A stretch of DNA of 64,000 bases from positions 213,466,001 to 213,530,000 of the forward strand of contig OZ024743.1 in the NCBI GenBank assembly GCA_964016885.1, written 5' to 3'. This DNA is from Eledone cirrhosa. Lineage: Eukaryota. The position numbers were made by a program, and so were the translations under genes. The number at the start of each line of letters is the position of its first letter. Position 1 is the stretch's first letter. Positions 22,319 to 53,952 of the stretch are shown here, one piece after another. Below the pieces are notes generated by a model, which was not told the DNA's origin, searched no databases, and was given only the letters and a program-made list of their open reading frames with translations.

Positions 22319-22373
22319 AATCCTATATATAGAACGACACACATTCTCTCTCTCTCTATATATATATATATCT

Positions 22374-22483
<110 letters not shown>

Positions 22484-23664
22484 ACACACACACGTATAAA
22501 TATCACGTCACTTCCTTATCGCTCACAAAATAAATGACCAACAATAGTATATTCGGTTTTACTGACAGGAAATTAGACATTAACGATTAGTGGCTCTGGC
22601 ATAATTATCTTGTCATTGTTTCAATCCTTTTAAACATATTGTGATATAGTTTTAATACTAAAACAACAAAAATCATCTTGTTCAAATTTACACTACTTGT
22701 TGCGTACTGCAACAAATAAACACTCCTTTCTGGTAGAATTCATTGAATTAAGATTTGCGTTATTGATCTTCCATAAATGTTGAATAGGTCTGATATTTGG
22801 ATAACGTCCAGACCCAAAACAACATCTCAATTTCATGATCTAAAAAAAAAAAAAGATGTATATTTGATTCTTCTGGCAGAAAATGCGAGGACATTATTAT
22901 GTTGGAATGTTGCCATTATGGAATGAAATATATTATTGTCTACACGGAAGACGCACTTGTAAATATATTCTTAAGATATACAGCGACAATTTCATTGGAG
23001 AAAATGAATGAGAAAACGTCTTGAATGGGTGAAAGATAACTATATTTTCACTGTATCACTTCTTAATCATTTTGTTGTGACATGTGAGCAAAGGTATTCC
23101 CTGTCTAGACATGAACTATCTAGGATTACATTTCACAATATATCCATCTTTACACTGGTGGCAAGTAAGGTAAACAAGCGTTTTCTGGTATTTCAAGCAA
23201 ATCTAAAGACTAGCTAGTAAGTTTTGATAATCTATGATAATCTATTTTATATAAGTATATAATATATTGATAGAAAGAGAAAATGGGGACTTTCAGTCGA
23301 AGGAAATATTTCATATGTTCATTATCTTTTATGTTTGACTTAATGTTTTACAATTTTAAAGAGATCTGTAAATTATTAGTGTATTTAAATTTCCCGAGTT
23401 TATATGTCATATGCAAAGGAGTGTATATAATTTATATAATCTGCAATACAAAAATGCCACAAAAGCTTACAGTGCTTACACATTTCGGTAAAATACGATG
23501 TTAAAAAGAAACGAATATATAAACATCCAGTGGGTGAGATTTCCGAATGTATCATGATTATCTAAATATAAGGTCTATTAATTTGAATTTATTAATATCT
23601 TTTAAGTTGTCAAGTTGTATGTGGATGATTGATTGCATAAACAATATTATATATATATATATCT

Positions 23665-24495
23665 CGTTTGTCCGCTAATGAGCAGATATTCGACGAACAT
23701 GCGCCTCATTACAACCAGGCTCTCGAGCGGAGTGGTTTCCGGGAGGAAATATCCTTCTATCCAGCTTCCCTTAGCGGAACCAGCAGGCGACACCACCGCT
23801 CACGCAACGTAACGTGGTTCAATCCTCCCCACAATGCCAAGGTGGCAACACCTATCGGGAAAATCTTCTTTAGGCTCCTCGAAACACATTTTCCACCATA
23901 ACACCGCTATCACAACATAATAAACAAAAACACTATCAAGCTATCCTACAGCACCACACCTAACTTCGCACAAAACATCGTCTCCTCAAACAACAAAAAA
24001 CTCAACCTCTATGGAAGAAACAACCTAGAAATTAGTGGAGAGCCGACCAGGAACTGTAAGTGCCCTGATAGATCTACCTGCCCCCTCAACAACAGATGCC
24101 GAGAACGTAACGTGATCTACCAGTGCAACGTGAGGACGGACACCTCCAACAAAGCTTATATAGGATTAACCGCTTATGACTTTAAGACCCGGCTCTACCA
24201 ACACTGACATACGTTCGGAAACCCGGTCCGGCGACATGCCACCACACTTTCGGGCCATATCTGGAACCACCAAGATAATAATATAACTTACCATCTTACT
24301 TGGAGCTTACTTTTCAGAGCCAACTCTTACACGGGAAGACGCCGTCCCTGTAACTTATGCTCGAAGGAAACATTACAAATGCTGTTTACGAAGGATCAAC
24401 TCCTAAACAAAAATGACGAACTGGTAACTGCATGCAAACACAGATTGCGGAAGACTTACCTCGCCCTCAAACATCCTAACGATCCGGGTGGGTAG
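23665..24495 (+). pseudogene. Penelope-like RT thumb/linker + GIY-YIG endonuclease
   Basis: One frame with two stops: WFNPP...IGKIFFRLLETHFPP*H...NKNTIKLSYS...CKC...CPLNNRC..NVIYQC...AYIGLT...FKTRLYQH*...CNLC...LLNKNDELVTACKH. Confidence 0.9.
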
Positions 24496-25279
24496 ACTAT
24501 GGCTGAAACACTCCACTTGCCGAATAAGATAGGGAAAACCCCTACTTATATAGGTAGATGTACCTCTTTCTTTTTCCTCTATGTTTTTTCTTTCCCTTTG
24601 TCTCCTATCACTTCTTTCCACCACCGAATTTCTTCCTCGTTCGTTTCTTTGTGTTTTCTTCCCCTTTCGCCTACCCCGAGGCAGCCCATCGGGCGTATTT
24701 AGCCTCAGTACCCCCACCCCAGTAACTTACAGATAGCATTCGCCGATTACGCTATACTAACTATTTATAGCAGCTGTGATAGACTCCAGAGATGTGGTAT
24801 TCATTTTTAATTCTAAATTTTCAATAATTCTCGTCTAGCAACTCATTCTATAGCTTAGGCCGAAATACAGCACCAACTAAATACAGCAGCTGTGTTAGAC
24901 TCTTAGTTTTATTTCACTTCTCACTTTCCAATCTTACATTCTGATACATCTTTCTCTCATTTTTTATTACATTCTCTTTTATTATATTTTTTCATTGTCC
25001 CCTAGTCGCATTTGATTTACTATTTCTATAACGTCCCTCCTACACTTTCTAAATAAAACCTTTTTTCGCCAACCTCCACTGGCCTACTTTCATACACATT
25101 CCTTAGAATTTGCCGTGTAGATTTCACCTTCTACGCTTGACCGGCTCTATCCACTCCAATATCGTTCTACAGACAAGTTCAACCATCCCCACCTCGCACA
25201 CACTGCCATGATAGACTTTTCTGTGTCTGCTACACATTTTGACCAATCCTCTTGACTACTACAATGTTCCCATATAAGT

Positions 25280-25379
25280 ACCTCTTGAAAAGTTCGGCTA
25301 TTTATTTACCAGGCTAAAAAAAACTCTTACATTAGTCCAGAAATAGCCGTCGAAACGGCTTGAGCTCTGCCGACGGGGT
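25280..25379 (+). ncRNA. Type I hammerhead ribozyme motif, U3:A8 variant (cleavage triplet mutated in this copy)
   Basis: ACCTC-TTGAAAA-GTTCGGCTATTT...AAATAGCCGTC-GAAA-CGGC(ttgagctct)GCCG-AC-GGGGT. Sibling copies at 36741 and ~37100 have GTC. Confidence 0.7.
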
Positions 25380-25390
25380 CAATCATTTTC

Positions 25391-25460
<70 letters not shown>

Positions 25461-25466
<6 letters not shown>

Positions 25467-25865
25467 ATAAATGTAAGCTATCGCCGTATTTTGACTAAAG
25501 AAATTAAAGAAATTATTTAGACTGATAGTGGGGTTAAGAACCCTCGGAGAAATGGAAAAAGATGAGTATTGACGTACATGGGAGTCGAACCCACATCTTT
25601 GATTATCCAGACCACTGTGCTACCATTTACACCAACACATCACATTTAGGTGATGTGTTGGTGTAAATGGTAGCACAGTGGTCTGGATAACCAAAGATGT
25701 GGGTTCGACTCCCATGTACGTCAATACTCATCTTTTTCCATTTCTCCGAGGGTTCTTAACCCCACTATCAGGCTAAATAATTTCTTTAATTTCTTTAGTC
25801 AAAATACGGCGATAGCTTACATTTATAATAATTTCAAACCCGCTCGCTGTTTCGAAAAATATTCT

Positions 25866-25868
<3 letters not shown>
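25461..25868. repeat. Fold-back element: 183-bp arms (25461-25643 / 25650-25832) plus 36-nt tail, in (TA)n
   Basis: The arms are reverse complements with 2 mismatches around a 6-nt loop ATTTAG. Confidence 0.95.
25652..25723 (+). tRNA. tRNA-like cloverleaf (anticodon GGA; likely SINE head or pseudo-tRNA); inverted copy at 25570-25641
   Basis: GATGTGT TG GTGT-AAATGGTA-GCAC A GTGGT-CTGGATA-ACCAA AGAT GTGGG-TTCGACT-CCCAT GTACGTC A. 72 nt with A/B boxes. Three G-U pairs in the acceptor stem, and the short variable loop is atypical for Ser. Confidence 0.6.
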
Positions 25869-25900
<32 letters not shown>

Positions 25901-26135
25901 ATATTTAGAAACACACAGATACATGCGAACACACACATATATATGAATGCATCCACATCCAACCGTGAGTCAATGGTGCCAACCCTACCGATGTTGCTCA
26001 ATGAATGACTGGGACAGACCAATCCGGTTGAACCAGACTGAACCAGTATCAGAGTTAAAAATACATTATGAAGAGAGAAGGAACATTTAGATATAATTAG
26101 TAATAAAATGTATCATACCTAAACTGCTCCTAGAT

Positions 26136-26225
26136 TCCTCGACTACGTAGTTTCGTGGCATAAACAAAAACAGTACATCATAAAGATATAGAGCCTTTGC
26201 GAGGTCTGCCGACTTATCAAGAGGA
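26136..26225 (-). ncRNA. Type I hammerhead motif, U3:A8 variant
   Basis: TCCTC-TTGATAA-GTcGGCA...TGCCAC-GAAA-CTACGTAG-TC-GAGGA. Confidence 0.78.
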
Positions 26226-26727
26226 TTCCTCATTTTATAGCTTCAAGAACGCGTCTACACGACGTGAGAAAGAATCCCAAAAGGCGGAGGGGGAGATAGT
26301 CACGCGATATAACGGTCGAGAAACAGAGCTAAGCCTCCTATAACCTCGAAGAAAATACCACGGAGGCGGAGGGGGTATTTATATCGAAGCCGTAGAAGAG
26401 GTGGTAAAGGAGGCGAGAAGTATGAGTAATGGCAGCTTTCCAGCAGTCACTACACTTCATAGATTACTCGACCAGGGGGAGTTATGAACAATATATTTAG
26501 AAACACACAGATACATGCGGACACACACATATACATGAATGCATCCACATCCAACCGTGAGTCAATGGTGCCAACCCTACCGATGTTGCTCAATGAATGA
26601 CTGGGGCAGACCAATCCGGTTGAACCAGACTGAACCAGTATCAGAGTTAAAAATACATTATGAAGAGAGAAGGAACATTTAGATATAATTAGTAATAAAA
26701 TGTATCATACCTAAACTGCTCCTAGAT

Positions 26728-26817
26728 TCCTCGACTACGTAGTTTCGTGGCATAAACAAAAACAGTACATCATAAAGATATAGAGCCTTTGCGAGGTCTG
26801 CCGACTTATCAAGAGGA
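26728..26817 (-). ncRNA. Type I hammerhead motif, U3:A8 variant (tandem copy)
   Basis: Identical motif 592 nt from the first. Confidence 0.78.
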
Positions 26818-27093
26818 TACCTCATTTTATAGCTTCAAGAAAGCGTCTACACGACGTGAGAAAGAATCCCAAAAGGCGGAGGGGGAGAATTACTCATACT
26901 TCTCGCCTCCTTTACCACCTCTTCTACGGCTTCGATATAAATACCCCCTCCGCCTCCGTGGTATTTTCTTCGAGGTTATAGGAGGCTTAGCTCTGTTTCT
27001 CGACCGTTATATCGCGTGACTATCTCCCCCTCCGCCTTTTGGGATTCTTTCTCACGTCGTGTAGACGCGTTCTTGAAGCTATAAAATGAGGTA

Positions 27094-27183
27094 TCCTCTT
27101 GATAAGTCGGCAGACCTCGCAAAGGCTCTATATCTTTATGAGGTACTGTTTTTGTTTATGCCACGAAACTACGTAGTCGAGGA
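27094..27183 (+). ncRNA. Type I hammerhead motif, U3:A8 variant (inverted copy)
   Basis: tcctc 27094-98, TTGATAA 27099-105, GAAA 27165-68, CTACGTAG, TC, gagga 27179-83. Confidence 0.78.
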
Positions 27184-27255
27184 ATCTAGGAGCAGTTTAG
27201 GTATGATACATTTTATTACTAATTATATCTAAATGTTCCTTCTCTCTTCATAATG

Positions 27256-27289
<34 letters not shown>

Positions 27290-27643: not shown

Positions 27644-27835
27644 GTGGTGGATTGGCAGAATCGGTAGAGCGTTGGACACCGTGCTTTGTAGCATAGATTT
27701 ATGGCCCTTTACGTTCTGAGTTCAAATCCCGCCGAGGTTAACTTTGCCTTTCATCCTTGCGGGATAGATAACATAAAGTACCAGTAATGCACGGAGGTAT
27801 TTGCTGGCCTTGTGCCAAAACTAGAATCAATTATT
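27644..27835 (+). mobile_element. tRNA-derived SINE
   Basis: Same family as 18132. A partial copy is also at 28274-28410. Confidence 0.87.
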
Positions 27836-28895
27836 ATATACCAGTCTTCCACGCTAGCTTTGATACTGAACTGTTCTAAAGAGATGGAATGCGGTTTATA
27901 AAACAGATGCGTGTTTTGCTTTTTTACGCTATGTGTCCCGCATTTGATCTTAAGTTTCTAAATGAATTCATATTATATTAAACTTATTCAGTTTAACATT
28001 TATATACTGGTGCAGCAGCCACAAAACAGGACATCATTTTGTTGCTTATACATTTAAAGCACATAAAACAATACATGCAAGAAAACTAGATTGAAAATTA
28101 TTAATTTATCACGGTCACCTCTTTTATAGAATTCCACAAAAATATAGGGATTAACAAAGAAAACGTTAATATTTATATATGAAACATGATAATTAACAGT
28201 GATATAGTACATGTCAATTAAACTATGAACGTTGGCTGAAATTGACTGTTAAGCTATTATACATTCGCCAACGAGGCGACGAATTGGCAGAGTCGGTAGA
28301 GCATCAGATAGAATACTTTGCAGTATTCGTTCCGATACCCTGCTTTCTGTTCAAATCCCGCCGAGGTCAACATTGCTTTTCTTCCCTTTAAGGGTGACGA
28401 ATAGTACTACTGGTGGGTCGACGTTTCCTCTATATCTATTTCTCATTTCTATTCACCTTCTCTCTATCCTTCTCTGGAAGAAATCTGCTGTATTCAGACC
28501 TGGATAGTAGAATGCCCCGCCATCTTTCAAAATGGACTAGAAACGTTGTATGTCAATATAGCGTCCCTACAGCACACCCAGGAGTTACGGATCCATACAT
28601 AGATACAGACATATTCACCAAAGACGATCACATTGACAACTTTATTCCTATGAAACGTCGTTGCTTACGAGTGAACGCCACAACGAAACGTTAATATTGT
28701 TATTTCACTTAGATGATGTGAACAAAAAGGACTTGAAACATTAATGGGCTTCGGAATACTGTTGTCTGAATAATTAAGTATAAGGAATTAATTTAGAAAT
28801 AGGACAATGTCCCTTATAGAACATTAAAATCGAGCAACCCGTCGAATTATCAACATACACACAAAAACGCACGCATACACATACATACGCATACA

Positions 28896-28966
<71 letters not shown>

Positions 28967-29240
28967 AAAATTAAGATAAATCAAAGTGAATTTAATCTAG
29001 ATCAAAATTATGGGTGTCATGCCAGAAAGGCATACGCCATATCACCCGTAAAATAAGCTCCAAGATTCTAATGAATATGTCCGAGCATTTTATAACAACT
29101 AGAAATTGATTAACATATAAATAAACATATGAAACAATCACAGGGGATAATGTTTACAGTGTGTAAGCACACATAGCTAGGTAGGTAACTAAATAAAGTT
29201 AACTAGAACTTCAAAAATAGATACCTTATAATATGATTAA

Positions 29241-29335
29241 TCTTCCCTGTATATATTCCATTAAAGAAATATATTTCACCAACTAATCGAAAGGTAAACC
29301 ACGGAGGCCGATACTTGGATTTTCAACAAGGAAGA
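29241..29335 (-). ncRNA. Type I hammerhead motif, U3:A8 variant
   Basis: Reverse-complement copy of 29554-29648. Confidence 0.78.
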
Positions 29336-29553
29336 AGTCCAGCCATCTGTGTTTACGCATTAAGTTCAAATCAGCGACTGGCCAGTAACACGTGCTGTAT
29401 CTACAAAAATACACACATCATACCAGCTTCGTCCCAGTGGCGTGAATAGGGTTATCGACAACTAGAAACAGCAGTCAAGTCCTTTCAACAGAGTTAGCTC
29501 TATCAGGCCAGTCGCTGATTTGAACTTAATGCGTAAACACAGATGGCTGGACT

Positions 29554-29648
29554 TCTTCCTTGTTGAAAATCCAAGTATCGGCCTCCGTGGTTTACCTTTC
29601 GATTAATTGGTGAAATATATTTCTTTAATGGAATATATACAGGGAAGA
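29554..29648 (+). ncRNA. Type I hammerhead motif, U3:A8 variant
   Basis: TCTTCCTTG-TTGAAAA-tCCAA...TTGGt-GAAA-TATATTTC(tttaat)GGAATATA-TA-CAGGGAAGA. 9-bp stem I, 8-bp stem III, AUA cleavage triplet. Confidence 0.8.
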
Positions 29649-29798
29649 TTAATCATATTATAAGGTATCTATTTTTGAAGTTCTAGTTAACTTTATTTAG
29701 TTACCTACCTAGCTATGTGTGCTTACACACTTGTAAAAATTATCCCCTGTGATTGTTTCAAATGTTTATTTATTTATATGTTAATCAATTTCTAATTG

Positions 29799-29874
<76 letters not shown>

Positions 29875-29878
<4 letters not shown>

Positions 29879-30056
29879 AAAGAGCCAGGACTCCGACGGC
29901 TGTGCTATGGCCGTTTCGACAGCTAGATCCGAACAGTTCGGATCTAGCTGTCGAAACGGCCGGATCTCTTTTCCTATTACCCGGTGTTCTACCCTAAGTA
30001 TTGAGTACTCTGGTGCGTTATAGTCCACCTGGTTTCTTACCACACTTTCTTTGATT
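29875..30056 (+). mobile_element. Short fold-back Penelope-like 3' terminus (variant subfamily) in (TA)n
   Basis: Hairpin GGCCGTTTCGACAGCTAGATCCGAAC-A-GTTCGGATCTAGCTGTCGAAACGGCC plus tail CCCTAAGTATTGAGTACTCTGGTGCGTTAT, shared with 36657 and 37001. Confidence 0.8.
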
Positions 30057-33345: not shown

Positions 33346-35053
33346 GGAAACAGAAAAATGTTTCAACCCAAACTTATGTAATGCAACTGCAGATAAAAAG
33401 CATAAACATTTCTCTTTAGAAAGTAGAATATATTTCCATAAAAGCTAAATGTATTTTTCACAGATGACTATTTTGTATATTCATATTGGTCCATAGCATA
33501 TGTATTGCTATTGATGCTGACAGGCTGAAAGGGAAGTTAGAGAATTAGCCATATATCCAGATGAACACATTAATTTGATATACTTTTGTTCAGAATATAA
33601 TACTGTATTATAATATAACAGCAGGTTTTCAGGAGATTTGTAAGTATTTTTAGATTGAGTTATTTTCGAGTGTTGAGAGATGTAGCTGAATCTTCCAGCC
33701 AGGTCAAATTCTATGAAAAAATTGAAATGCTATCATACTATTTATAGATTCTATTCCCAAATTATTAATGGATGCTGTAGTCTGTTAAGATAGCACCTTT
33801 TCTTGTATTTGAATCATTTCGAACCCTTTTATCTATTCTTATTTTAGATTTTATAATTTATCGATAAAAGTTTGAACATTAGGTGAAGCTGTCAATACCT
33901 CAGGTTATAGAATTATGAATGAAACGTTGATTCCAGTGAATGTATTTAATAGAATCATATCGCCTACATTGCTATGCAACCGTACATCACTTGAGTTAGA
34001 GAAATCAATTCCGTATGTTATATTTAAACTTGAAGATAATTGAGAATATTTCTCATACTAATCGTTTCTTTTTATTTTAATGCTATTATTGCTTTGGTAG
34101 GCGAAAAGGGATCTGCCTATGGTCCCTGCAGGCTCTCCTGGAATTGCGCAGATTACACAACTTGTTATATGTAAAATTATTACTGCTTAAGTGAACGTCA
34201 TTCACGAGAACATAGTAATTAATATATCGATGAAGATAACAAATACCATCTTTTATTACACCCACCACTCTAGAAAAAAGAAAAAAACTTGAGCCAACGG
34301 GGGTACCTCTATATTTTCCTGTAATCCGCGAGAATTAGCAGCCCTATACATTTCAAATTACGCAGTGCCATTTATAAAAAGAACACACAAGATAATGTTC
34401 GTGATATGGAATTTCTGGAAACACAAGGGAGTATAGCTACAGCCTGGAATACTATTGATCATAGGCATACCTGCTGAGAGCTGAGTCTGGTTTAAATAAG
34501 GAAAAGCAAACTAAAATAATATGAATAAAAAATCCACAACGTCGACAATACCATTAGAATATGTAATAGGAAAATATGAAGCACAGTAGTGTTTCTCGAA
34601 AATAAGAAAATAAACAGAAGGTACAATGAAGGTAATAATAACAATCTATACTTCGTTAATATATACAAACTAATTTTTATGAAAAGCAGAGAGATAAAGA
34701 CTTTTCTGAAAGGTAGAGCATGGGATATAAAAAAGGAGGGTTTTCAGAGGTAATGGAATTCACAAAAAAAAAAAAAATCTTATATATACTTTAAAAGAAA
34801 TGGTTTGAATTGTTTAAGCTTTTCCGTGAATATAGAAAGTAGGGACCCCATTTGGTCACCATAAAGAGAGATGAGGAGGGCGAGAGAGATGGAGGGGATG
34901 GCAGTGAGAGTTCGGCCCTTCCATGTTCGGACCATATCCTTGTGATTGAGTTCATTATTTATACAGAAAATCTACACACTGGTATCCGTCTATCTAGCTA
35001 TCAAAGAAAGTAGATTGACGTCTGAACTAGTACTTTTTTAATAAATCTAATAA

Positions 35054-35238
35054 GTGTTTCTACTTTTGGAACAAGGCCAGCAATTATCCCAGTGTATTAC
35101 TGGTACTTTATTTTATCGACCCGGTAAGGATGAAAGCAAAGTTAACCTTGGCGGGATTTGAACTCAGTCCGTAAAGGGACGTAACTGTGCTGCAAAGCAT
35201 GGCGTCCCACTCTCTACAGATACTGCCAATCCACCGCC
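35054..35238 (-). mobile_element. tRNA-derived SINE with 17-bp TSD
   Basis: TTTAATAAATCTAATAA at 35037-35053 and 35239-35255. Confidence 0.92.
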
Positions 35239-35626
35239 TTTAATAAATCTAATAACGTTATTTCAATAGATTCATACTATTTCATTATATTTATCTCTCT
35301 ATTCTTTGAAATGTAGTGTAGTGTAAAATATTTAATCTTTATAGCAATCATTAAATACTACAAGCAATTTTATATCAGATATGTTCCTTTCAATTATATT
35401 TTTTTCTCCATGTAAGATTACAATGAGGAAACAATGATAATAAATTCTTAAAAACAAATCAAGTGAGTAATTGTGGGACACATTTGTGAAGTTTTCTCAT
35501 ATGTCACCGTAGCCAAAACATTTATAGCATATAATGCATATAAATATACATATTTATAAACATACATTCATATACCTAAGTATATATATATATATAGTTA
35601 TGTAATAAACAACATAAGATAATTAT

Positions 35627-35707
35627 TTCATTTACCAGTGGTTTCTTGAAGACAGATGTTGAGTCTGAATGAATATGTTGAGTCTGATGTTGAGTCGTCA
35701 GAATGAA
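35627..35707 (-). ncRNA. Hammerhead-like motif (C3:G8 core, disturbed stem II); mutated copy at 36263-36330 (+)
   Basis: TTCATT-CTGACGA-...-GAAA-CCACTGG-TA-AATGAA. The plus copy has core CTGCCGA. Confidence 0.55.
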
Positions 35708-36003
35708 TACAAAACATGGTGTTTTTATTAAATATGTATTTGAAAACAAAATTTGGGAAATATCAAAGTGAGGCTGAAAAAAAACGGGCGAAAAGGAAAT
35801 AGGGGAAAAAAATATAAAAAATATATATATAAAAATATAAATATCCAGAACGTAAACATACACACACTCAACTAGGCGCATATACTAAATACAACTTATG
35901 CGGCTTCATATGCAAATGAGATTAATCACCTCATTTACACAACGAGAAAAGTGTATTTTCTCGCCTGTCTTCTAGTCCAGCAGTCGCAAGCGGTGGGAGG
36001 GAG

Positions 36004-36043
36004 CGTCCTGACGAAGGCCAGTTAAGCCTGAAATGCATAGACG
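36004..36043 (+). ncRNA. Minimal type I hammerhead ribozyme (canonical core)
   Basis: CGTC-CTGACGA-AGGC(CAGTTAA)GCCT-GAAA-TGCA-TA-GACG, with palindromic stem III ATGCAT. Confidence 0.85.
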
Positions 36044-36424
36044 GACACCAGAGGACGTTAGCCCCTCGGTGTTTGCATAGCTAGGGCTTCCTAAAACCAT
36101 ATATCCTTGGAGATACGAAATATTTATTTTATGATATATATATATATTTTTTTATATTTTTTCACCCTATTTCCTTTTCGCCGGTTTTTTTCAGCCTCAC
36201 TTTCATATTTCCTAAATTTTGTCTTCATAATCCATATTTAATAAAAACACCATGTTTTATTATTCATTCTGCCGACAGCCAACTGAAGACAGACACAACA
36301 CCTGTGTTCAAGAAACCACTGGTAAATTAAATAATTATCTTATGTTGTTTATTACATAACTAATAAGCTCTGTAGCCTACATAGAGCACTCTTTTTTCCT
36401 GTACCTTTCTGACGGAAATACTTC

Positions 36425-36656: not shown

Positions 36657-36658
<2 letters not shown>

Positions 36659-36843
36659 GAAAATGTTTAACCCCAACGGCAGAGCTCAAGCCGTGTCGAC
36701 GGCTATTTCTGAAATAGCCGTCGAAACGGCTTGAGCTCTGCCGTCGGGGTTAAACATTTTCCTATTACCCACTCTACTACCCTAAGTATTGAGTACTCTG
36801 GTGCGTTATGGTCCATCTGGTTCCTTACCACAATTCCTTCGTT
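36657..36843 (+). mobile_element. Short fold-back Penelope-like 3' terminus in (TA)n
   Basis: Hairpin 36657-36763 centred at 36710. The arm matches the 3' end of the GIY-YIG element (25340-25392). Confidence 0.88.
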
Positions 36844-37000
36844 ATATATATGTGTGTGTGTGAATATATATATATATTCCATCATGTTATGAGCGAAAAT
36901 AAATTTTGTTTATATATATAAAGAGAGAGAGAGAGAGAGTTGTAGAGAGAAAGAGGGCGAGAGCAGGGGATGGGAGTGAGATTTAGTATATATATATATA

Positions 37001-37199
37001 TAACAAAGGAATTGTGGTAAGGGATCAGATGGACCATAACGCACCAGAGTACTCAATACTTAGGGTAGTAGAGTGAGAAATAGGAAAAAGTATGACCCCG
37101 ACGACAGAGCTCAAGCCGTTTCGACGGCTATTTCTGGACTCGACGGCTATATCTGGACGTCGAAACGGTTTGAGCTCTGCCCTCGGGGTCATACTTTTT

Positions 37200-37203
<4 letters not shown>
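37001..37203 (-). mobile_element. Short fold-back Penelope-like 3' terminus in (TA)n
   Basis: Reverse-oriented sibling of 36657, with a duplicated CGACGGCTAT.TCTGGAC at the hairpin centre. Confidence 0.88.
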
Positions 37204-37234
<31 letters not shown>

Positions 37235-41049: not shown

Positions 41050-41085
<36 letters not shown>

Positions 41086-41096
41086 GAAGAAGAATG

Positions 41097-44000
41097 TTTT
41101 CTTTATTAACCACAAGGGTTTACATAAAGTAGACATTAAAGACAGTACAGGACAATACAGGACGGTACAAATGGGCATTTCTGCGTGTAAAAAAACAGAG
41201 GATGTAATAAAATAACAAAGAAAAATTCCTCACAAGGGGGGAGACTTCTGAGGGATATTTGTGGAGAAAGCCCATTAAAAGACCACAGTGACCCTGACCA
41301 CCAGGGTAAGTGCCCTCTCTCAGTTTTCCACCTTTAATTTACAGACACATACTCAGAGTAGGCCCATTCACTCGGGCCATACTTGCTTCTCTCACCCATC
41401 TTTCAACAAAATGCTGGGAAGAGAGCACTTCCCTCTCTACCCTGATTTTCCTTTTCAAATGAAATTTGAAAAAGTTAAGCAGGGCATCATCGAAGAGGTA
41501 AGTGCTCGTCTTCAGCCCTTTCAAACGTGTCCACCATACTATCTCTTTTGTCATGGCCACCAGACAGATAAAAACTGCCTGCCCTTCCCAGCTAGAGGAA
41601 GAGAGCGGAGCATTCCTCACGATGGACTCAGCTGATAGCCGGATCCGTCGTACACGTGACAGCAGGTGTTCGACATAAACCCACAAGTCATCAATGCTCG
41701 GACACTGGACGAGTGCGTGCAGGACGGTTTCGTCGCCCTGCGCGGATCTCGGACATGCCCGGCTGACGGCACCTCCATGCCTGTAGAGTTTATCCCGAAC
41801 TGGCAAGGCTCCCCGGTAGCACTGCCAGGCCAGGGATTTCTGGAAGTTGTCCATAGGCCCCGGCCCGAAAGTCCGTCCGAATAGATTGGCTAGTTGATTT
41901 TCGTCGACGCCTAGAGTTTTTCCAAGTACGTCGTCGCTCTTCCCCTCCACTAATCCTCTATAGAACGCCAAGGTGGAGTTTCCACCGATCACATTGCCCG
42001 ATTGGTCGAGGGTTTTGAGCGCCTGAAGACATTCCAGTCTCCAGGCGCTCCCTCTCGGTCTTCGCTTGACCCAGGACTGCAGCTCCGTCAAGGAAACGAG
42101 CTGGGGAATACGTGTCTAGCAAACCGTGACCACACCTGATCACCGTCGAGGAAGAGGTGGAGATGTCGTAGCCTGAGCGCGTGTCTGCGCATCATCAGCC
42201 ACGGCATGCCCAGCTCTCCACGTAGCGGGTGTTGACAGCAGAATGACCGCCTGACCATCGGAGCGCGTCCCTTCCACAAAAAGCGAAAGAGCAAACGTCC
42301 AGCGCAGTCAGGCGGGGCTTAGGACAAGGTACGACGGTCAGGCGGTAGCAGATGACACACGCGATGTACGCGTTAGCCACCTCCACTCGACCTTTCAGGG
42401 ATAGCTTTCTCTCCGCCCATTTCTGGGTGAGAGAAGCCACCCTGCTCGTCACTTCGTCCCAGTTTTTGTCAGTCTGGAGGTCCGGACCGAACCAGACCCC
42501 GAGCAATTTAACCGGTCCGTCCGTCCAGCGCTCGACGGCACTGTTGGACGGCATGGACCTGCCTCTCCAGGTGCCGAGCTGCAGGCCCACTGACTTTCCT
42601 GGTTGATCATTGCTCCTGTCACCGCTTCGTATTCTCTTAGTGTAGTGCCGATCGCCTCGATGTGTTTGGCGTTCGACACCACTACGGTGACATCGTCCGC
42701 ATATGCTGACACGGATATTCCGCATCCTAGTTCGCGCGGGACACCTCTCAACGTCTCCAGTTTGTGCAGTAAGGGCTCGAGAGTCAATACGTACAAGAGG
42801 GACGAGAGGGGACATCCTTGGCGGACCGAGCGCATTATGTTGAACGGTTCAGAAAGGTGACCGTTCACTCTCACCACAAGCAGATGTCGCTGTGCATAGC
42901 AGCGATCCAGCCTCTGAAGACGGGCCCAAAGCCAGCCGCCCTCAGGACTGCCGCTAGGTAACGATGGTCGACCCTATCGAAAGCTTTCGACTGATCTAAA
43001 TTGATCAAGGACCCACCGGTGCCAGGTTCCCTAGCTACCCTCTCTACGATGTATCGCATGAGGTGGAGGTTGTCGTGGATGGATCTGTCGGGAATGGCGC
43101 ATGTCTGCGCCTCTCCCACCAGACCACCAACGACAAGCGCCAACCTCTTTGCTAGCACCTTGGCCAAAATCTTAAACTCTGTGTTTAGCAGAGTTATGGG
43201 CCGGAAATTTTCTATCTTATCCCCCTTGTTCGGATCCTTTCTCAGCAGTGCCACCGCTCCTCGGCTCACAGAACTGGGAATTCTCCCGTTCTGTTGCCAG
43301 TTGCAGTAGACGTCCGCCAAGAGGCCTCCGAACAAGTCTGGCATCTGTACGTAAAGTTCATAGGGCAGACCATCCAAACCAGGCGATTTACCCCTTGTGC
43401 AGCCAGTCATTGCCTCCCGTACTTCAGCGGCTGTTATCGGCTTTTTGCAGCACTCCGCCTCAGTGGCCGAGTGCCGCGGCAGTCCGTCGAGGTAGACACT
43501 AAAGTCCATCCCTCGACCCGGCCCACCGCTGTGCCCCCGAACAGCTGAGCGAAGTGTCGCTGAAAAGCTTCACACATTTGCCCGGGATCGTGTAGCATGC
43601 GCCCGTCGTGGTCCACCAAAGACCGGATCGTGGCTCTGTTGCCACGACGCGCCTCCGCCACTCGGGCCCATTGAACGGCTTTCGTCCCCTCGTGTCTGAG
43701 AGCACGCACCCTAGCTCTGACAACGCAGCCTTCGTGCTTTGCATTGAAGAATTGGTCAAGGGCCAATTTCGCCGCAAGCACGTCGGTCGCGAGGCCTTTG
43801 CTAAGCGCCTCGTCTAATTTTCTAACTAGTTCTCCCTCTGCTCTATTTTTCTCTATTGCTAAAGCCTTACTAAACCTAATGGATTCTATTCTAATCGCTC
43901 TTTTCAGAGCAAACCACCACTTGTTGTTGACGATGGCCCCCGTCAACGCCCGCTTAACTAGTTCGCTAATCCGGTCTCTGTAGGCCTTGCGCGCTGGTAA

Positions 44001-46667
44001 GGACGCGTTTAGCTTCCAGTAGCCGGATCCTCGTCTATGAAGTCTATCTAAGTCAAGCACACAGATCACGAATTTGTGGTCCGTGTAGCTGACTATCTTG
44101 AATTGTGGACAGCCTATGCTAAACCTATCTATTTCCCTACAAAATACTCTATCTAGCTATGATCTGGATGACCCTATGCTATTTGTCCAAGTCCACATTG
44201 GCACATTCGGGAAATCCAATCGGTACCTGTCAGACAGTTCAAAACGCCTGAGCAGGTTGGTGAGGCTCTTGCACCCTCCACCCCTATTCGCTAATCCCAC
44301 ACAGTCCCAGCGTGCATCTAAGATCCCGTTCCAGTCGCCCACTAACACTAAAGAGCGGGACGTTCCAAGAAAGGTCTCCAGACGCCGGAAGAAATCAGGC
44401 CGCCCTGCTCCTGTCGGGGCATAGACGGCCACTAACCTGAAAGCTTGCCCGTCTCCACTGGTCACGTCCAGCACCACCAACATACCCTCTGGATCCAGGA
44501 AGATGGCCCGTATAGCGAGATCCAAACCTCTACGAAAAAGCACAGCAACTCCCCCCCCCCCCGATCCAGGACGGCTGGGTGATGCGTACACATCGTAGCC
44601 GCCGAAGATCGGTGCGAAGGCCCGTGCTTCGAAGATTCTGGTCTCGCTGATGGCCACTACATCTATGTTTAGTGACCTGACGTCGTTGAGTAGGTGACCC
44701 TGCTTCCATGACGACCCCAAGCCACGCGCATTTATGCTGCCTATTCTGAGTAAGGTCATCTTTAAAATGGAGTGGAAAAGATGGGAAAGACCACTTACCG
44801 TACTTTTCGTAGAGGAAGGATGGTTTTTCCATCCCTTTTCACTTGATCGTCTGGTGAAGGGACCGTTGAATCGTCCCTTCGGCTGGTCGTCGGCTCTTCT
44901 ATGAGTATGTCCGAATATACTCTCCGGTTGAGAGTCCCCCCTAGGTCTATGAAATCACCAACTGCGTTGGGGCATTTCGTTTTAATGTTTGTTTATTGTT
45001 TCTGTGCTATTTTTACCAGTCTTATGTTCGTTGGCGTTTTGATTGGTGCTGGTATTATGTAGTCGTGCTGTGAAATGTCTGTATGTTCAATTATGTAAGT
45101 CATTAGTTTCTTGTTGTGTGTATTTATTGCCGTGCATTTGTTTTTCTGGGGGTGAGGTATGGTTCTGCTATTTTCTGGTCGTTGTTGCTGGGTGTGTGTG
45201 TTTTGTTGTTGTGTTTGTGATGTTGGTGCTTGTGGTGGTGGTGTTGAAGGTGTTGTTGTTGTTGGCGGTGGGGTTGTTGCCGGTGTTGATGGTGGTGCTA
45301 GTGTGGGTGGTGATGGTGTTGGTGGTGCGAAAGCATTTCGGGCGTTTGCCCTCAACATTTATGGGCATTTGAGTGCCGTTATCGAAGTCTAACACATCCA
45401 GGATAGCTTCGATGCACTCCTGGTTGGTTTGGATTAACATCTCAACGGAGGTGCCGACCCAATCTTTTCTTACTTTTTTCTGTACTTGCAGTACAGTTGT
45501 TTTGTCCTCGATTCCGACGAGGACAGTCGCGGCTAGCCAAGAAGGGGCCATCCGGGGGGGGGGGGGACGTGGGTCAGTTTGACACTCACAATTTTTTGCC
45601 CGCAGTAGGAGGGGGCACCAACACCATTTCCTCGCTCCTTAGGGTCACTAAGGATTGAGCCTTTGCCTCCTGGGGTGTGGCAAAAAGCACGTCTATGGTG
45701 GCATATTTCTTGCCTCGGGTGATATGCGTTTTCCGCTGCCACACAGACCCTAAGGCTTTTTGTGGCTCTTTCAACCCGACGGGATTTTGTGCTTACTGTA
45801 CGGTACGTGACCGTACAGTGCTGTTGAGTTTCGAAAAATGTTTCGGCTGCCTTGCAGATTGCTTCGCTTCTTGTAATTCCTCATTTGTTATGACGATGGT
45901 TTCCAGGTTCTTTGCGATACCTGCAAACGAGATTGGTTTTTCTTTGCTGCTGTTGTTGTTGTTGTTGATGCCGTCAGAGCTGCTGTTACTTTTGTTTTTG
46001 CTGCAGGTAATACGACTACTGCCGCCACCGCTGTTGCTGTGGTTGTTGTTGTTGTTGTTGCTGCTGCTGCTAATGCTGTTGTTGTTTATGCTGCTGCTGA
46101 TGCTGTTGCGGCTGCTACTGTTGTTTTCCTTCTCACTGTTACTGCTTCTGCTGCTGTTATTACGGCTGCTACTGCTATTATTCATGACGTCAGACGAATG
46201 AAATGGGTTTTCGTATTTCCCGCACACCTTTTTCGTCGTTGTTGTCGTCGTGGAGAAATGTTCCTTGATTTGCACGTGATTTTGTAAACTATTTTTCTTT
46301 ACTAGCGTCGCTTGCGAAAGAGAAGGGAGCGAGTGAGACACATTTAGAGAAGGGAGGGAGAGAGACAACCTTCTCTCTGCTGTAGTGACGATTCAGGAAG
46401 AAGAAAACGGAATGAGTGGGAGTGACTTGTGAAAATTCTTTTTCGTAGCCATGTTTTTTTTTGGTTTAAAATAAATACTGGGCACAAAACCCCAATAATC
46501 GGTTATTTAAACCCGAAGGGCAAAATATGGGACAGAAAGACCCTTCTCACGAGGATGAGGGTGTTTTTGTCTATAGTTTGGTTAAAGTTTTAAACAATTT
46601 ACAATTGTTATAGCGGTCGACATTTACAATACCTTACAGAGCCGAACCTCCGTCAACCATGGCATTC
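41097..46667 (-). mobile_element. Tx1/L1-type retrotransposon copy 2 (same family as copy 1) in (AAT)n
   Basis: Same 5' terminus GAATGCCATGGTTGA and same 3' UTR as copy 1. ORF2 at 41339-44759. ORF1 at 44795-46452 has a ~440-bp deletion at 45327. Confidence 0.93.
41339..44759 (-). pseudogene. ORF2 of copy 2 (APE-RT), frameshifted
   Basis: MTLLRIGSINARGL, VYAP, VGDWN, GYWKLN, FRPITLLN, AYADD, FQKSLAWQCYRGALPV. Confidence 0.93.
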
Positions 46668-46691
46668 AATAATAATAATAATAATAATAAT

Positions 46692-47888: not shown

Positions 47889-50800
47889 ATTTCTTTATTG
47901 GCCACAAGAGCTGACATCAAGAAAAACATCACAGACGGAACAGGACGGTACGATGTGGGCTTTGTGCGTGTAAATATTTTTATTATTTATATAATAAAAG
48001 AAAAAAAGACATAAAACATATATATATATATAAACAATAAAATGAAAATTTAAACAATGAAAAATTCCCCAATAGGGGAGAAACCTCCGAGGGTTACTCG
48101 TGGCGAAAACAAACAAAAGACCACGGCCACCCTGACTACCAGGGCAAGCGCCCTCTCTCAATTTTTCCATCTCTCAAACTACAGACGTATATTCAAAGTG
48201 TTCCCGTTCACTCGGACCATTCTCGCTACATTCACCCCCCTTTCAACTAACTTGCTAGAAAGCAGCACTTGCCTCTCCACCCTGATTTTCCTCTTCAAGT
48301 GAAACTTGAAAAAGTTAATTAGGGATTCGCCGAAGAAGAAAGTGTTTGTCTTTAATCCTTTTAACCTTGTCCACCACACAATCTCTTTTGCCATGGCCAC
48401 CACCAAGCAGATGAAAACCGCCTGCCCTTCCTCCTCAAAGGAAGACGGCGAGACCATCTGCACAATGGACTCAGTCGACAACCGGATCAGTCCCACACGT
48501 GACAGCAACTGATCGACATAGCTCCACAAGTCAGTAATGCTCGGGCACTGAACGAGTGCGTGCACAACGGTTTCGTCGCTATGCGCGCATCTCGTACAGG
48601 CTCGGCTGACGGTACTTCCGTGCCTGTAGAGCTTATCTCGAACCGGCAGCACTCCCCGGTAGCACTGCCAGGCCAGGGATTTTTGGAAGTTATCCATAGG
48701 CCCCGGGCTGAAAGTTCTCCGGAAGAGAGCAAACAGCTGATCTTCTTCGACGCCCAGCATCTCTCCGAGAATGTCGTCGCTCTACCTCTCCACTAGTCCT
48801 CTATAGAACGCCGAGGTGGATGTTCCAGCGATACTGGTGCCCACTTGGGAGAGGGAAGTGAGTGCCTGGAGATATTCCAGTTTCCAAGCGCTATCCCTCG
48901 GTCTTTTTCTGACCCAGGACTGCAGCTCCGTCAAGGAGACGAGCTGTGGGAAAATGTGCCTGGAGAACGGCAACCACACCCGTTCACCATCAAGGAAGCA
49001 CCAGAGATCTCGCAGCCTCAGCGCATGTTTGCGCATCATCAGCCATGGCATGCCCAGTCCTCCACGCAACGGGTGTTGACAGTAGATGGATCCTCAGACC
49101 ATGGGAGCGCGTCCCTTCCACAAAAAGCGGAAGAGGAGGCGCTCCATTTTGGTGAGAGTTGGGCTGGAGAAAGGGACGACGGTGAGGCGGTAGCAGATGA
49201 CGGATGCGATGTACGCATTCGCTACATCCGCGCGGCCTTTCAGGGACAGCTTCCTCTCAGCCCATTTCTGGGTGAGGGAGGCCACCCTGCTCGTCACCTC
49301 GTTCCAGTTTTTCTCCATCTGGAGGTCCGGTCCGAACCAGACCCCGAGCAATTTAACCGGTCCGTCCGTCCAACGCTCCACGACGCTGTCGGACGGCATG
49401 GACTTGCCTCTCCAGGTGCCTAGCTGCAAGCCCACCGACTTTTCTTGGTTTATCTTTGCTCTTGTCACCGCTTCGTATTCCTTGAGAGCGGTGCCGAGCA
49501 TCTGGACGTGTCTGGTGCTCGACACCACCACGGTGACGTCGTCAGCGTAAGCCGACTCGGATTTCCCGCATCCTAGTTCGCGTGGGACGCCCCTCATCGC
49601 CCCCAGTTTGTGCAGTAACGGCTTGAGAGCCAATACGTACAAGAGGGACGAGAGGGGACAACCTTGGCGGATTGAACGCATGATGCTGAACGGCCGCGAC
49701 AGGTGACCGTTCACCCTCACAACTGAGCAGATGTCTCTGTACATTGCTGCGATCCAACGCCTGAAAACGGACCCGAAACCGGCTGCCTCGAAGACCGCCG
49801 CCAGGTACCGATGGTCGACCCTATCGAATGCTGTGGATTAATACAAGTTGATCAGGGCCCCACCCTTGCCATGTTCCTTAACCACCCTCTCTATGATGTA
49901 TCGCATGAGGTGGAGGTTATCGTGTTTGGATCTGTCCGGAATGGCGCATGTCTGCGGCTCTCAGACCAGACCCTTGACGACAAGCGCCAACCTCGTTGCT
50001 GACACCTTGGCCAAAATCTTGAACTCTGCGTTTAACAGGGTTATGGGCCTGAAATTATCAATAACATCCCCATTGTTCGGGTCTTTTCTCAGCAGCACCA
50101 CTGCTCCCCGGCTCATAAAACTGGGAATGCTCCCGTTCTGCTGCCAGTTGCAGTAGACGTCTGCAAGAGGTCACCGAACAAGTCTGGCATAAAAGCATAA
50201 ACTCGTAGCGCAGACCATCTAAACCTGGCGATTTACCTCTTGTGCAGTTAGCCATCGCTTCCCGTATTTCACCGGCTGTTATTGGCTTTTCGCAACACTG
50301 TGCTGCGGTCGTCGAGAGCCCAGGCAGTCCGAGGAGGTATGCACTGAAGTCCATGTTCCGATCCGGGCCGCGCTGCTCCCGAACAGTTCAGCAAAGTGCT
50401 GCTGAAAAGCTTCACACATCCGCTCGGGTTCGAGCATCACGCACCCGTTTTGGTCAGACAAAGACCGAATTGTGGCTTTATTGCCACGTCGAGCCTCTGC
50501 CACCCGGGCCCATTGGACGGCTTTTGTCCCCTCGTGTTTTAGAGCACGCGCTCTAGCTCTGACAACGCAGCCTTCGTGTTTTGCGTTGAAGAATTGGTCG
50601 AGTGTCAATCTCGCCGCAAAAACGTCGGTTGCGATGCCTGTCCTAAACGCTTCTTCTAGCTTTCTGACTAGCTCTCCCTCTACTCTATTTTCCTCTATCA
50701 CTACTCCTTTACTAAACCTAATCGACTCTACTTTAATTGCCCTTTTCAGGGCGAACCACCACCTGTTGTTGACGTCCGCTCCCGTCAACGCCCGCTTAAG

Positions 50801-53800
50801 TAATACGCTAATCCGATCTCTGTAGGCCTTGCGCGCCGGGAAAGACGCGTTAAGCTTCCAGTAACCAGGCTCTTGTCTATGAAATCTGTCTATGTCGATC
50901 TCACAGATCACAAATTTGTGGTTTGTGTAGTCGACCATTTTAAATTGTGGACAACTTATACTAGCCTTATCTAGTTCCCTGCAGAATACCCTATCTAGAT
51001 ACGATCTGGATGACCCGATGCGGTTTGTCCATGTCCACATTGGCACATTCGGGTGATCCAGTCGATACCTGTAAGACAGTTCAAAACGTCTGAGCAGGTT
51101 GGTGAGGCTCTTGCACCCTCCTCCCCTATCCACTAGCCCCACACGATCCCAGCGTGCATCCAAGATACCGTTCCAGTCGCCCACTAACACTAAAGAGCGG
51201 GACGCTCCAAGAAAGGTCTCTAGACGTCTGAAGAAATCTGGCCGTCCTGCCCCTGTTGGGGCGTAGACGGCTACTAGCCTGAAAGCATTGCCTTCGCTGC
51301 CGGTCACGTCCAGCACCACCGACTTACCTTCTTGGTCCAGGAAGATGGCCCGCATCGCGAGATCCAAGCCTCTCCGAAAAAGGACGGCAACCCCTCCCCC
51401 CGATCCTGGACGGCTGGGAGATGCGTATACATCGTAGCCGCCGAAGATCGGTGCGAAGGCCCGTGCCTCGGAGATTCTGGTTTCACTGATGGCCACCACA
51501 TATATGTTTAGTGACCTGAGTTCATTGAGCAGGTGACCCTGCTTCCAATATGACCCAGGCCACGTGCATTTATACTGCCTATTCTGAGTACAGCCATGTT
51601 GGATGAGAAACGGCGCAAATGAGAAAGGGTCACTTACCTTGTTCGTGTGGTGAAGGGACAGTAGAACCGTCCCTTTCGCTGGTCATGGGTGTTTCCAAGA
51701 GGATGTCAGTGTATATCCTCTTGGTAACCGTCCCTCTGACGCTCTGAAGTGGCCAACTGCGTTGGGGAATTTTTGTTTTAAAGGTTTGTATTGTTCTATT
51801 GAGATTTCGATGATGCTTATGTTTGTCGGGAGAGTTCTTGGTATTGGTGGGGTGTAGTAGCTTTTTTTCCGTGATGTCTGTGTGCTGCTTTATATATTTT
51901 ATGAGTTCTTTTTTTGCTATGTTTATGGCTGTGTACTTTTTTGGGGGGAGGGGTGATTTTGTTGCCGTTTTCTCCTTGTTGCTGTTTGGTGTGTGTGTCT
52001 TGTTGTTTGCGTTGTTGGTGTTTGTGGTGGTGTTGCTGCAAGTTTCCTTGCTGACTTTACCTCTCTTTGTATGCCTTCGCTTTTGGAGGGTGAATCTAAG
52101 GGTTTTTTATTGTTTTTTGTTTTTTTGTGGCAGACTGTTTGCCACGTCACTCCCGCCTCAAACTCCATGTCGGATTCTGTGGCGTCTGGGAGGGGTATCT
52201 GCTCCACGGCTGTTGGTGGTGGTAGTGGAGCCCTCTTCGGCAATTTTGTTGCTGGTGTAGCTATTTCAAATGTAGCTATTGGTGTTGCCGCTACTGATGA
52301 TGCTGCTTTAGTTATCCGTGGCCTTGGTACGGGTGCTACGGACGTTGCCCTCCTACTCACCGTGGAAGGGGCTTCTTGGTTTGTTCCCTGTCCTATTCTT
52401 GGTAGCAGCGGACCAGCTATTGGAAGGAGAGGGGCCCTCTTCGGTGTCTCTTCGGGCAAAAGGCCCTGAGGTGACCCTTCGACCCACAGAGATAACATTT
52501 TGGCCGTCTTCCGTCTACACTTAGAGGGAGTTGGAGTCCTTCCTCGAAGTCTATGATATCGGGGATAGCCTCGATACATTCCTGGTCAGTTTGTATAAGC
52601 ATTTGCATGCCTATACCTGATCAGTTCTCTCTCCCTATTTTTTCTACTTGCAGCATGGTCGCCCTGTTCTCAATTCCAGCAAGGACAGACGCAGCCAGCC
52701 AAGGTATGGGCACGTCGGGTGAGACCTGGGTCACTTTACCCTCACAATTTTCTGCCCGCGGTAGGAGGGCACCAAGACTAACTCCTCACTCTTTAGGGTT
52801 TCCAAAGAGTGAGACTTTGCTTCCTGGGGTGGTGGCGAAAAGTACGTCTACTGTGGCGTACTTTCTGCCTCGGGTGATGTGGGTTTTGCGTGCCAGACGC
52901 ACCCCAATGCCTTTTGGATTTGAGCCTCCGTGGCTCTCTCCACTCGATGTGAGATTTTGCTTACGGAGCGGTAAGTCACCGTCCGTAGCTGCTGGTCCTT
53001 GAAAAAATCGGGTGGAGGTTTCAGGGAAACTCTATTTGCGCTTCTTGTCACCATGGCCCTTGCGACTGCCATCTCCTCCTCTGTGACTCGATATTTCGGG
53101 CGAAACCTGCAAAAGAAATGGTCCCTTTTTCAGCAGCACCACTATTGCTGCCGCTACTGGTCTTACTGGTGGTGCTGAGGTCGCTATTACAGGTATCGGT
53201 GTTATTGTTGTTCTTTTCGCTGGTACAGTTGTTGGTGTTGTTTTCGTTGATACTGTTGCTGCTGTTACTGTTATTGTGGCTGTTGTTATTATTGTTGTTT
53301 TTGTTGATACTGTTCCTACTATTATTGTTGTTGTGGCTGTTGTTATTGTCATTGTTATTGTCGTTCTCGACCTTACCGCTGTTATTTTTGTTATTGTTGT
53401 TCTCGACCTTACCGCTGTTATTTTTGTTATTGTCGTTCTCGACTTTACCGCTGTTATTTTTGGTGTTGTTGTTGGTGATGTTGTTGGTGTTATTGTTGGT
53501 GTTGTTTGTGTTAGAAATATTTGGTAATTTTAAATCTGTAACAATCTTTTTTCGTTTGTAATATTTTCGTTTATATTTACCTCCGCTGGAACGCTGTCTT
53601 GTTGATATGCTGATAAAGTCTCCATCTCTCTGTGTTGTCTGACAGCGCTCTCTCTCTTTGTGTTATGCATGTTGACATTTTTCAAAAAAAATATTTTTAC
53701 ACAAATACGAATACGACACCCCGTAAAGGGGTGCCGTATTATTTACTAGTGAACCCCTGTATCAGATGGGTCTCTTCTTCTAAACTTTTATCAAATTTAA

Positions 53801-53892: not shown

Positions 53893-53949
<57 letters not shown>

Positions 53950-53952
<3 letters not shown>

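Follow-up and report, generated by a model that had tools for sequence, protein, structure and literature searches.

Short hairpin copies of a Hydra-clade Penelope-like family in Eledone cirrhosa are joined at one site within a predicted hammerhead

Short copies of a Penelope-like family assigned here to the Hydra clade consist of two arms that copy the same short stretch, one from the tail end and the other from the internal terminus, and that meet head to head at a hotspot with its upstream limit, A25334/G25335, in loop II of a predicted hammerhead. This breakpoint hotspot of the family is described below from copies in the window (the whole 64,000-nt stretch of Eledone cirrhosa DNA that was analysed) and from public sequencing runs. 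The short copies are best explained as insertions of a Hydra-clade Penelope-like retrotransposon that were aborted. The origin of inverted pLTRs in Penelope-like elements and the role of their hammerheads are called open questions in the accessible text of PMC3846280 and PMC8557442, and junctions stacked against a single base provide a genome-scale means to choose between self-priming and twin priming.

The window holds four copies of the family, all in (TA)n; three of them (A, B and C) are short hairpins, and positions in these are given below as equivalents of the longer copy D.

36657-36843, plus strand: copy A, short hairpin-plus-tail insertion in (TA)n
36657-36710, minus strand: tail-less inverted arm of A, from the internal terminus (at the end of CATTTTCC) to the 25339 equivalent
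36711-36763, plus strand: tail-bearing arm of A, beginning at the 25340 equivalent
36764-36843, plus strand: tail of A, ~80 nt, on one arm only
37001-37204, minus strand: copy B, second insertion, opposite to A in orientation and with different subfamily variants
37001-37140, minus strand: tail and long arm of B, ending exactly at the A of AGTCC (25334 equivalent)
37141-37158, minus strand: 18-nt duplication at the junction of B, a copy of 37122-37139 (stop and restart without inversion)
37158-37204, plus strand: short tail-less arm of B, starting only at the 25348-25349 equivalent
29875-30056, plus strand: copy C, divergent subfamily, with tail-less arm 29875-29934, centre A 29935 (start of AGTTC) and tail ~29975-30056
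23663-25392, plus strand: copy D, 5'-truncated Hydra-clade Penelope-like element in (TA)n, with no tail and no inversion

The arms of copy A (36657-36709 and 36711-36763) match at 51 of 53 positions around a 1-nt centre and are followed by the 80-nt tail. The tail common to A, B and C is 85-89% identical, in agreement with the initial annotation, which described three short copies made of a common tail plus a hairpin. Its statement that these copies lack the TTGANAA core is likewise borne out, since both the core and the 5' strand of stem II are absent from A, B and C alike, and the sequence that it saw ending the GIY-YIG element at 25340-25392 is indeed the end of D; the tail-less arms start from this internal terminus as well. 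Retention of GAAA, stem III, GTC and the 3' strand of stem I holds for the tail-bearing arm of A, which is the 3' half of the hammerhead beginning with the 3' strand of stem II, but not for the tailed arm of C, in which an 18-nt alignment gap (an internal deletion) removes GTC together with the stem I strand and the 3' side of stem III, all of which are retained in the tail-less arm only. A clean fold-back describes A but not B, the centre of which comprises 31 unpaired nt with the 18-nt duplication included; the centre of C is 1 nt.

The arms are grouped by copy at three diagnostic sites, a count read from the arm alignment: both arms of A carry TTAAACATTTT and both arms of B carry TCATACTTTTT, and no site groups the tailed arms with one another. 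The arms of C are alike (26/26) and differ widely from those of A and B. The three axes lie within 17 nt of a 600-nt range, for which the chance among the window copies is ~0.002. Because all copies sit in (TA)n, a target-site duplication is unreadable. Copies A and B are separate insertions into a single microsatellite-rich region; their tails face each other at a distance of 157 nt, and the two form a larger 152-nt inverted pair. Very short hairpin copies are easily mislabelled as MITEs or microRNA precursors. The tailed arms by themselves fold no better than shuffled sequences (z 0.41, -0.43 and -0.96), an Rfam search gave a microRNA-family match below threshold on A and on C, and the one-sided tail and the retroelement-terminus sequence of A, B and C are not those of a MITE; what they do display is the inverted 5'-truncated pLTR with one-sided tail of EN+ Penelope-like elements.

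The family assignment relies on copy D and on its protein homologs.

23668-24495, plus strand: broken ORF remnant of D with two internal stops, covering the RT thumb, a CxCX5C linker and a GIY-YIG-type endonuclease

Among 505 candidates, 13 longer proteins match the 275-aa remnant, 11 of them spanning 94-100% of it at 35-40% identity. D is truncated and lacks the RT core; the arrangement of RT and GIY-YIG endonuclease in one ORF is seen through its homologs, with a YRDD RT upstream of the same endonuclease in all nine that were aligned (of the 13). A Pfam search with D and four homologs returned no match. The linker reads CKCPDRSTC in the remnant (P0001), with cysteines invariant in the homolog alignment, and the endonuclease of D lacks the CCHH, having one Cys between the GIY- and YIG-like motifs, and contains CNLC..E..N..CKH. 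Of the RT motifs of the Hydra clade, RWK and DKT, the full-length homologs have RWR/RWK and DKT/DKS, in a region missing from D. The (TA)n insertion preference holds for all four window copies. As characterized in the accessible text of PMC8557442, the Hydra clade has the CxCX5C linker, no CCHH, CxxC and CxH around conserved E and N, and (TA)n targets. Judged by the linker, the missing CCHH, the flanking CxxC/CxH and the (TA)n target, A-D are thus assigned on sequence features to a Hydra-clade Penelope-like family. Exact-pattern scans for the family found nothing in metagenome, prokaryote genome or viral contigs.

The site of the junctions lies within a ribozyme-like motif near the end of D.

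25280-25379, plus strand: complete hammerhead-like motif of type I, in which the core is the U3-A8 variant (TTGANAA), loop II is long and loop III is palindromic

With the core held open, D 25280-25379 forms three stems in the predicted fold. The 9-bp main helix of stem II pairs 25295-25303 with 25341-25349 (constrained fold), the long loop between them contains a small inner helix, and 25332-25340 is predicted as short inner helix plus bulge. In the family majority of the mapped public data stem I is paired (25283 is C in 98% of depth) and the core is TTGANAA; at the cut site D has AC instead of TC, and T is found at 25373 in 99% of mapped depth, i.e., GTC. An Rfam search returned no hammerhead match for the D motif or elsewhere in the window. 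The U3-A8 core made D invisible to a strict hammerhead descriptor; a relaxed one found D and insert G (see below) and missed inserts F and H, which were read by eye. By its core, modeled stems I-III, NUH site and U3-A8 variant, a form described in the accessible part of PMC4209133, D 25280-25379 is a predicted type I hammerhead. The combination of U3-A8 core and long loop II occurs in three unrelated families within 5 kb (25280-25379, 27094-27183 and 29558-29644). The initial annotation placed the hairpin axis in the stem II strand, in contradiction to the axes themselves, which map to 25334-25340 in loop II; nor is the left arm the natural 5' strand of stem II (...TATTTA), being instead exactly complementary to the 3' strand together with bases of the loop (...TATTTCTGGACT).

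Inversion joints were collected from 4 of 11 listed public runs mapped on D 24792-25391 at 80% likeness. Mapped sequences comprised 8,165 contigs of run X3, 13,167 raw reads of run X9 (same species label, another study), 14 from X1 and 5 from X8.

25333-25343, both strands: inversion-joint hotspot, X3 contigs and X9 reads mapped on D

Opposite strands are joined in 38 X3 contigs, of which one has its joint at 25241/25284 and the other 37 fall into five junction types within 25333-25340, and in 53 X9 reads, all 53 within 25333-25343 with a sixth junction type added. No inversion joint was found among the sequences mapped from X1 and X8; the loose end of one X8 contig (another organism) fits the 25334/25335 junction. 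A repeatable truncation and inversion point, with breakpoints that are not uniformly distributed, had been anticipated by the initial annotation, and the concentration of joints in 11 nt supports this; the histogram it called for does have a sharp peak, but in loop II, outside the stem II helix where the peak was expected. Numbers of X3 contigs per hotspot junction type are 14, 7, 6, 5 and 5, the commonest junction being 25334/25340 (14 contigs, 18 reads). The shorter side of a joint is 21-48 nt and exceeds stem II, and the joints are therefore true inverted duplications. Joints at ~25333-25360 are visible for any subfamily, and those further upstream only for D-like subfamilies; all six types fall in 11 of the 28 visible positions (chance ~0.004). 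Exact re-parsing gives 0-1 nt of shared letters at the joints (the mapping output listed 3 once). The unpaired centres of the six types are 5, 1, 6, 1, 2 and 3 nt, with centres of 1-2 nt in 18 of the 37 hotspot contigs and of 3-6 nt in 19. Together with three others in the window the junction types number nine, and a single master, though not several, is therefore excluded; a lone master with an identical junction is also at variance with arms that share the variants of each copy.

Summed contig depth in X3 rises 62-fold at the hotspot bin, with other upward steps of at most 5.3-fold, but depth is not copy number and the step is confounded by subfamily divergence. Hotspot joints make up only ~1,170 of the 2.0 million summed depth in X3, where 105 contigs, among the loose ends listed, have loose ends before 25332 and resemble long-loop variants. 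The 53 inversion reads of X9 compare with at least 2,691 reads having mixed loose ends at 25332-25344 (agreement 0.41-0.48), so that hairpins are evident for only a minority of the copies crossing the hotspot. The depth step in X9 was set aside as evidence, this being a RAD run of mostly second mates in which fragment geometry can produce a step. Assembly artefact was ruled out by recurrence of the junctions in the raw reads of an independent study, and a splice-acceptor reading (TAG 25333-25335, CAG 25338-25340) by the finding that none of the junctions attaches an upstream exon. Deletion between the stem II repeats of a longer inverted copy would leave loop II in place, and selection for lost self-cleavage alone would be served by any break from 25292 to ~25360; both were rejected.

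The hotspot has a wall on one side only. The longer arm ends at 25333-25335 in 37 of 37 hotspot contigs and 50 of 53 reads, and the 25333 junction type reads equally as 25334/25339, so that no arm need pass A25334. Family sequence is still alignable up to 25332, i.e., beyond the wall, and copies B and C stop at the same A (AGTCC, AGTTC) although their stem II sequences differ. The partner end of the joints spreads downstream of the wall, and copy A (25339/25340) and the 25340/25343 type fall short of it. The mapped data also contain non-inverted restarts at 25334, 25336 and 25352, which together with the 18-nt duplication of B indicate that synthesis stops at the wall without fold-back. The hard upstream limit and soft downstream side suggest run-off from an RNA 5' end.

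Two promoter-like motifs lie at and before this limit.

25332-25337, plus strand: initiator-like TTAGTC, 5/6 to fly TCAKTY, in which A25334 is the upstream wall and the putative transcription start
25299-25310, plus strand: weak TATA-like TATTTATTTA, 31-35 nt upstream of 25334, 5/8 consensus positions

With A25334 taken as +1, fly/human consensus sequences (core-promoter table of PMC4581360, as far as accessible) are matched at 5/6 positions for Inr, 7/12 for MTE at +18, 5/6 for DPE at +28 and 5/8 for TATA. Of 127,840 window positions, 29 are as good on Inr, MTE and DPE and 13 on all four, counts that apply to motifs picked after the wall was seen and to MTE-like bases at +18 that are also the conserved CGAAA of the ribozyme. 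Transcription start within the pLTR is documented, in the accessible literature, for Drosophila Penelope and Chlamys-3.

The mechanism that we tentatively favor is that the pLTR promoter starts transcription inside the ribozyme, that reverse transcriptase, starting from both tail boundaries and using both strands of the target, continues to run-off at the RNA 5' end, and that the two short cDNAs are joined head to head. The RNA template would have its 5' end at the A25334/G25335 limit, most probably the Pol II start site of the pLTR, and the mRNA would carry only the 3' half of the upstream hammerhead and hence be uncut near the cap. The protein would bind near the RNA 5' end and nick both strands of the (TA)n target, and reverse transcription would start at the two tail boundaries, in the 5' pLTR of the mRNA. 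Both cDNAs would terminate by run-off at the RNA 5' end, at lengths of ~58 and ~140 nt and in the manner of retroviral strong-stop DNA. Joining of their ends through a pairing of 0-1 nt, often after the loss of a few bases from one cDNA, would then give a hairpin with a one-sided tail. We infer the start site, the twin priming and the joining step from the observed anatomy and wall. In vitro, the protein of a lizard Poseidon element cuts and extends both target strands, two internal RT start sites bound the tail, and uncleaved RNA is copied, as reported in the accessible portion of PMC11167929. Run-off of two equal cDNAs has against it that the tailed arm is the longer in all five readable window inserts (B, C, F, G and H), an excess that suits an ordered or snap-back process better; joints from the public runs do not tell which arm carries the tail.

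The same reading predicts that the capped 5' end of the RNA lies at a single base within the ribozyme and, if true, shows how a 5' ribozyme avoids destroying its own mRNA and explains why very short hairpin copies can outnumber longer ones. A broader version, in which promoter and ribozyme form one overlapping device, is possible but doubtful: a start inside loop II would split the upstream ribozyme and leave the downstream copy whole, and twin strong-stop cDNAs from the 5' pLTR of every mRNA would integrate as perfect ~55-bp hairpins in very large numbers, a major potential source of double-stranded RNA and cruciform-prone DNA whose RNA would be exactly the substrate strand of a two-part hammerhead.

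The model offered in the initial annotation, that the cDNA extends across loop II and folds back on itself by stem II complementarity, so priming the second arm, places the turn next to the observed hotspot, and the commonest junction, 25334/25340, would follow from it if a subfamily had a perfect stem II with a 6-nt loop. An intact short-loop ribozyme of this kind, appearing as a same-strand skip, was not seen among the matches listed from the 8,165 contigs and 13,167 reads. Snap-back through stem II should leave a ~35-nt spacer and ~9 nt of microhomology, whereas none of the 38 contigs and none of the 53 reads has these or retains the long loop, and junctions with loop bases in both arms are impossible by this route, which is unlikely in the extreme. 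A different turn, in which the reverse transcriptase unwinds stem II, stalls and turns on the nascent cDNA without stem II pairing, the endonuclease later trimming the second arm at the tail boundary, accounts for the longer tailed arm in the five readable window inserts and for the 3-6-nt centres of 19 of the 37 contigs. A centre of 1-2 nt, as in the other 18 contigs, is too tight for intramolecular priming in view of the minimum size of a hairpin loop; moreover, complementarity for priming is 0-1 nt, a stall is expected to leak upstream whereas the wall is sharp, and in insert F the two joined points are separated by 460 nt and show no clear microhomology. For rotifer Penelopes, PMC3846280 in its accessible text proposed self-priming at palindromes of the junction, but for the present family the stalled turn appears rather improbable.

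The wall and the missing microhomology would be explained equally well if the template 5' end came from RNA processing, a nuclease cutting either loop II or the apex of a hairpin transcript, with joining as in the favored mechanism, and the short inner helix and bulge predicted at 25332-25340 are compatible with such a cut. This leaves unexplained the initiator-like motif with its correctly spaced downstream matches, and the predicted cut site of the hammerhead-like motif itself is at 25374, 40 nt downstream of the wall; processing is regarded as a distinctly unlikely origin of the limit. It is also unlikely that a few master hairpins act as a non-autonomous family, so that the axis is inherited and not newly made each time. 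A very large excess of the 3' half, as in the 62-fold rise of summed depth, typifies a non-autonomous burst, and few junction types dominate, as the contig numbers given above indicate. Yet A and B each carry their own variants in both arms at three sites, C is a third subfamily with matched arms, and at least nine junction types would require nine masters made at one spot. Lizard-element RNA, moreover, needs sequence beyond the RT start sites (PMC11167929, accessible portion), and this is likely missing here.

Twin priming with run-off at a promoter-defined RNA 5' end, the reading preferred above, combines features of two known processes. In L1 twin priming, two cDNAs primed on opposite target strands give an inversion, the second priming being internal and variable with no duplicated arm. 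Retroviral strong-stop DNA is a short cDNA of fixed length made by run-off at the RNA 5' end; it is tRNA-primed and not integrated. The term 'strong-stop' is absent from the literature searched on this mechanism.

Inverted pLTR plus tail is the standard anatomy of Penelope in the accessible text of PMC3846280 and PMC8557442, and the self-priming reading of junction palindromes was already present in PMC3846280 (2013). The copies described here resemble EN+ Penelope-like elements of those papers in the head-to-head inverted copy, the tail at one end, the pLTR hammerhead and the palindromic junction. In the elements described there, tails are 30-40 nt, whereas here the tail is ~80 nt, the arms are only ~55 nt with no main body, and the junctions are concentrated at a single position of the ribozyme. 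No report of junctions with such a wall within a hammerhead was found in the literature searched, which was largely open access and did not extend to older Penelope reviews. Hydra-clade elements (PMC8557442) share the C-terminal endonuclease, CxCX5C linker, lack of CCHH, CxxC/CxH and (TA)n target; the Hydra ribozymes in the accessible supplement of that paper (File S2) have CTGA cores and a short loop 2, unlike the U3-A8 core and long loop II of this family. The Hydra-1_oBim ribozyme differs, and three motifs of this family were not found in the accessible part of the supplement. PAc/Poseidon of Anolis (PMC11167929, accessible portion) belongs to a different clade and is similar in having two RT start sites downstream of a hammerhead that bound the tail, an AT-rich target and copying of uncleaved RNA; the accessible text does not deal with the origin or the position of inverted junctions. 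Cercyon elements of Schistosoma show the same U3-A8 core covariation and palindromic loop 3 in the accessible part of PMC4209133; by comparison helix III is extended and loop II long in the present motif. Non-LTR retrozymes (bioRxiv 10.64898/2026.07.22.740005, accessible portion) are also short non-coding derivatives of Penelope-like elements tied to a type I hammerhead, but they are tandem units each with a complete hammerhead, whereas A, B and C are inverted and keep half a ribozyme.

Four further hairpin-plus-tail inserts in (TA)n, E, F, G and H, have spacers of 6, 460, 122 and 275 nt and unrelated, often asymmetric junctions. Whole hammerhead-like motifs are kept in the arms of F and G and in the spacer of H, so that a break at the ribozyme is specific to the family of A-D.

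25461-25868: insert E, 183-nt inverted arms (181 match), 6-nt spacer, 36-nt one-sided tail, in (TA)n
25896-27263: insert F, ~1.7 tandem units of a 592-nt monomer plus an inverted 370-nt arm, tail ~160 nt
27094-27183: hammerhead-like motif of F with TTGATAA core and long loop II, read by eye; the junction is far from the ribozyme
28966-29803: insert G, 293-nt arms, 122-nt spacer, ~125-nt tail, GGCC at both junction sides
29558-29644, plus strand, and 29331-29245, minus strand: whole TTGAAAA-core hammerhead-like motif in both arms of G
35591-36420: insert H, older hairpin (221/239 match), 275-nt spacer, one-sided tail
36004-36043: small canonical CTGACGA hammerhead-like motif in the spacer of H, read by eye

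In insert E a tRNA-Ser(GGA)-like gene forms the start of each arm, directly at the axis, and no hammerhead was found in these arms. From its sequence, insert E looks like a tRNA-headed RNA copied by Penelope-type machinery, no case of which was found in the literature searched. The position of the axis just 5' of the tRNA-Ser-like gene is as expected if the arms end at the RNA 5' end. Pol III might terminate prematurely at a T5 run that directly follows the tRNA. Insert F is retrozyme-like.

The window contains other repeats. Inverted arms of 197 nt with a 75-nt spacer and no clear tail at 60160-60629 may represent a MITE. A LINE-like element, with frames that resemble an endonuclease and an RT, is represented by several decayed minus-strand copies, 78-93% alike, at 10173-16262, 41055-46691, 48053-52995 and 54141-57544. 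A SINE-like repeat of ~190 nt is present in seven copies, 81-91% alike, at 18126-18310, 21613-21830, 22127-22331, 27646-27843, 35039-35255, 53937-54156 and 61683-61790.
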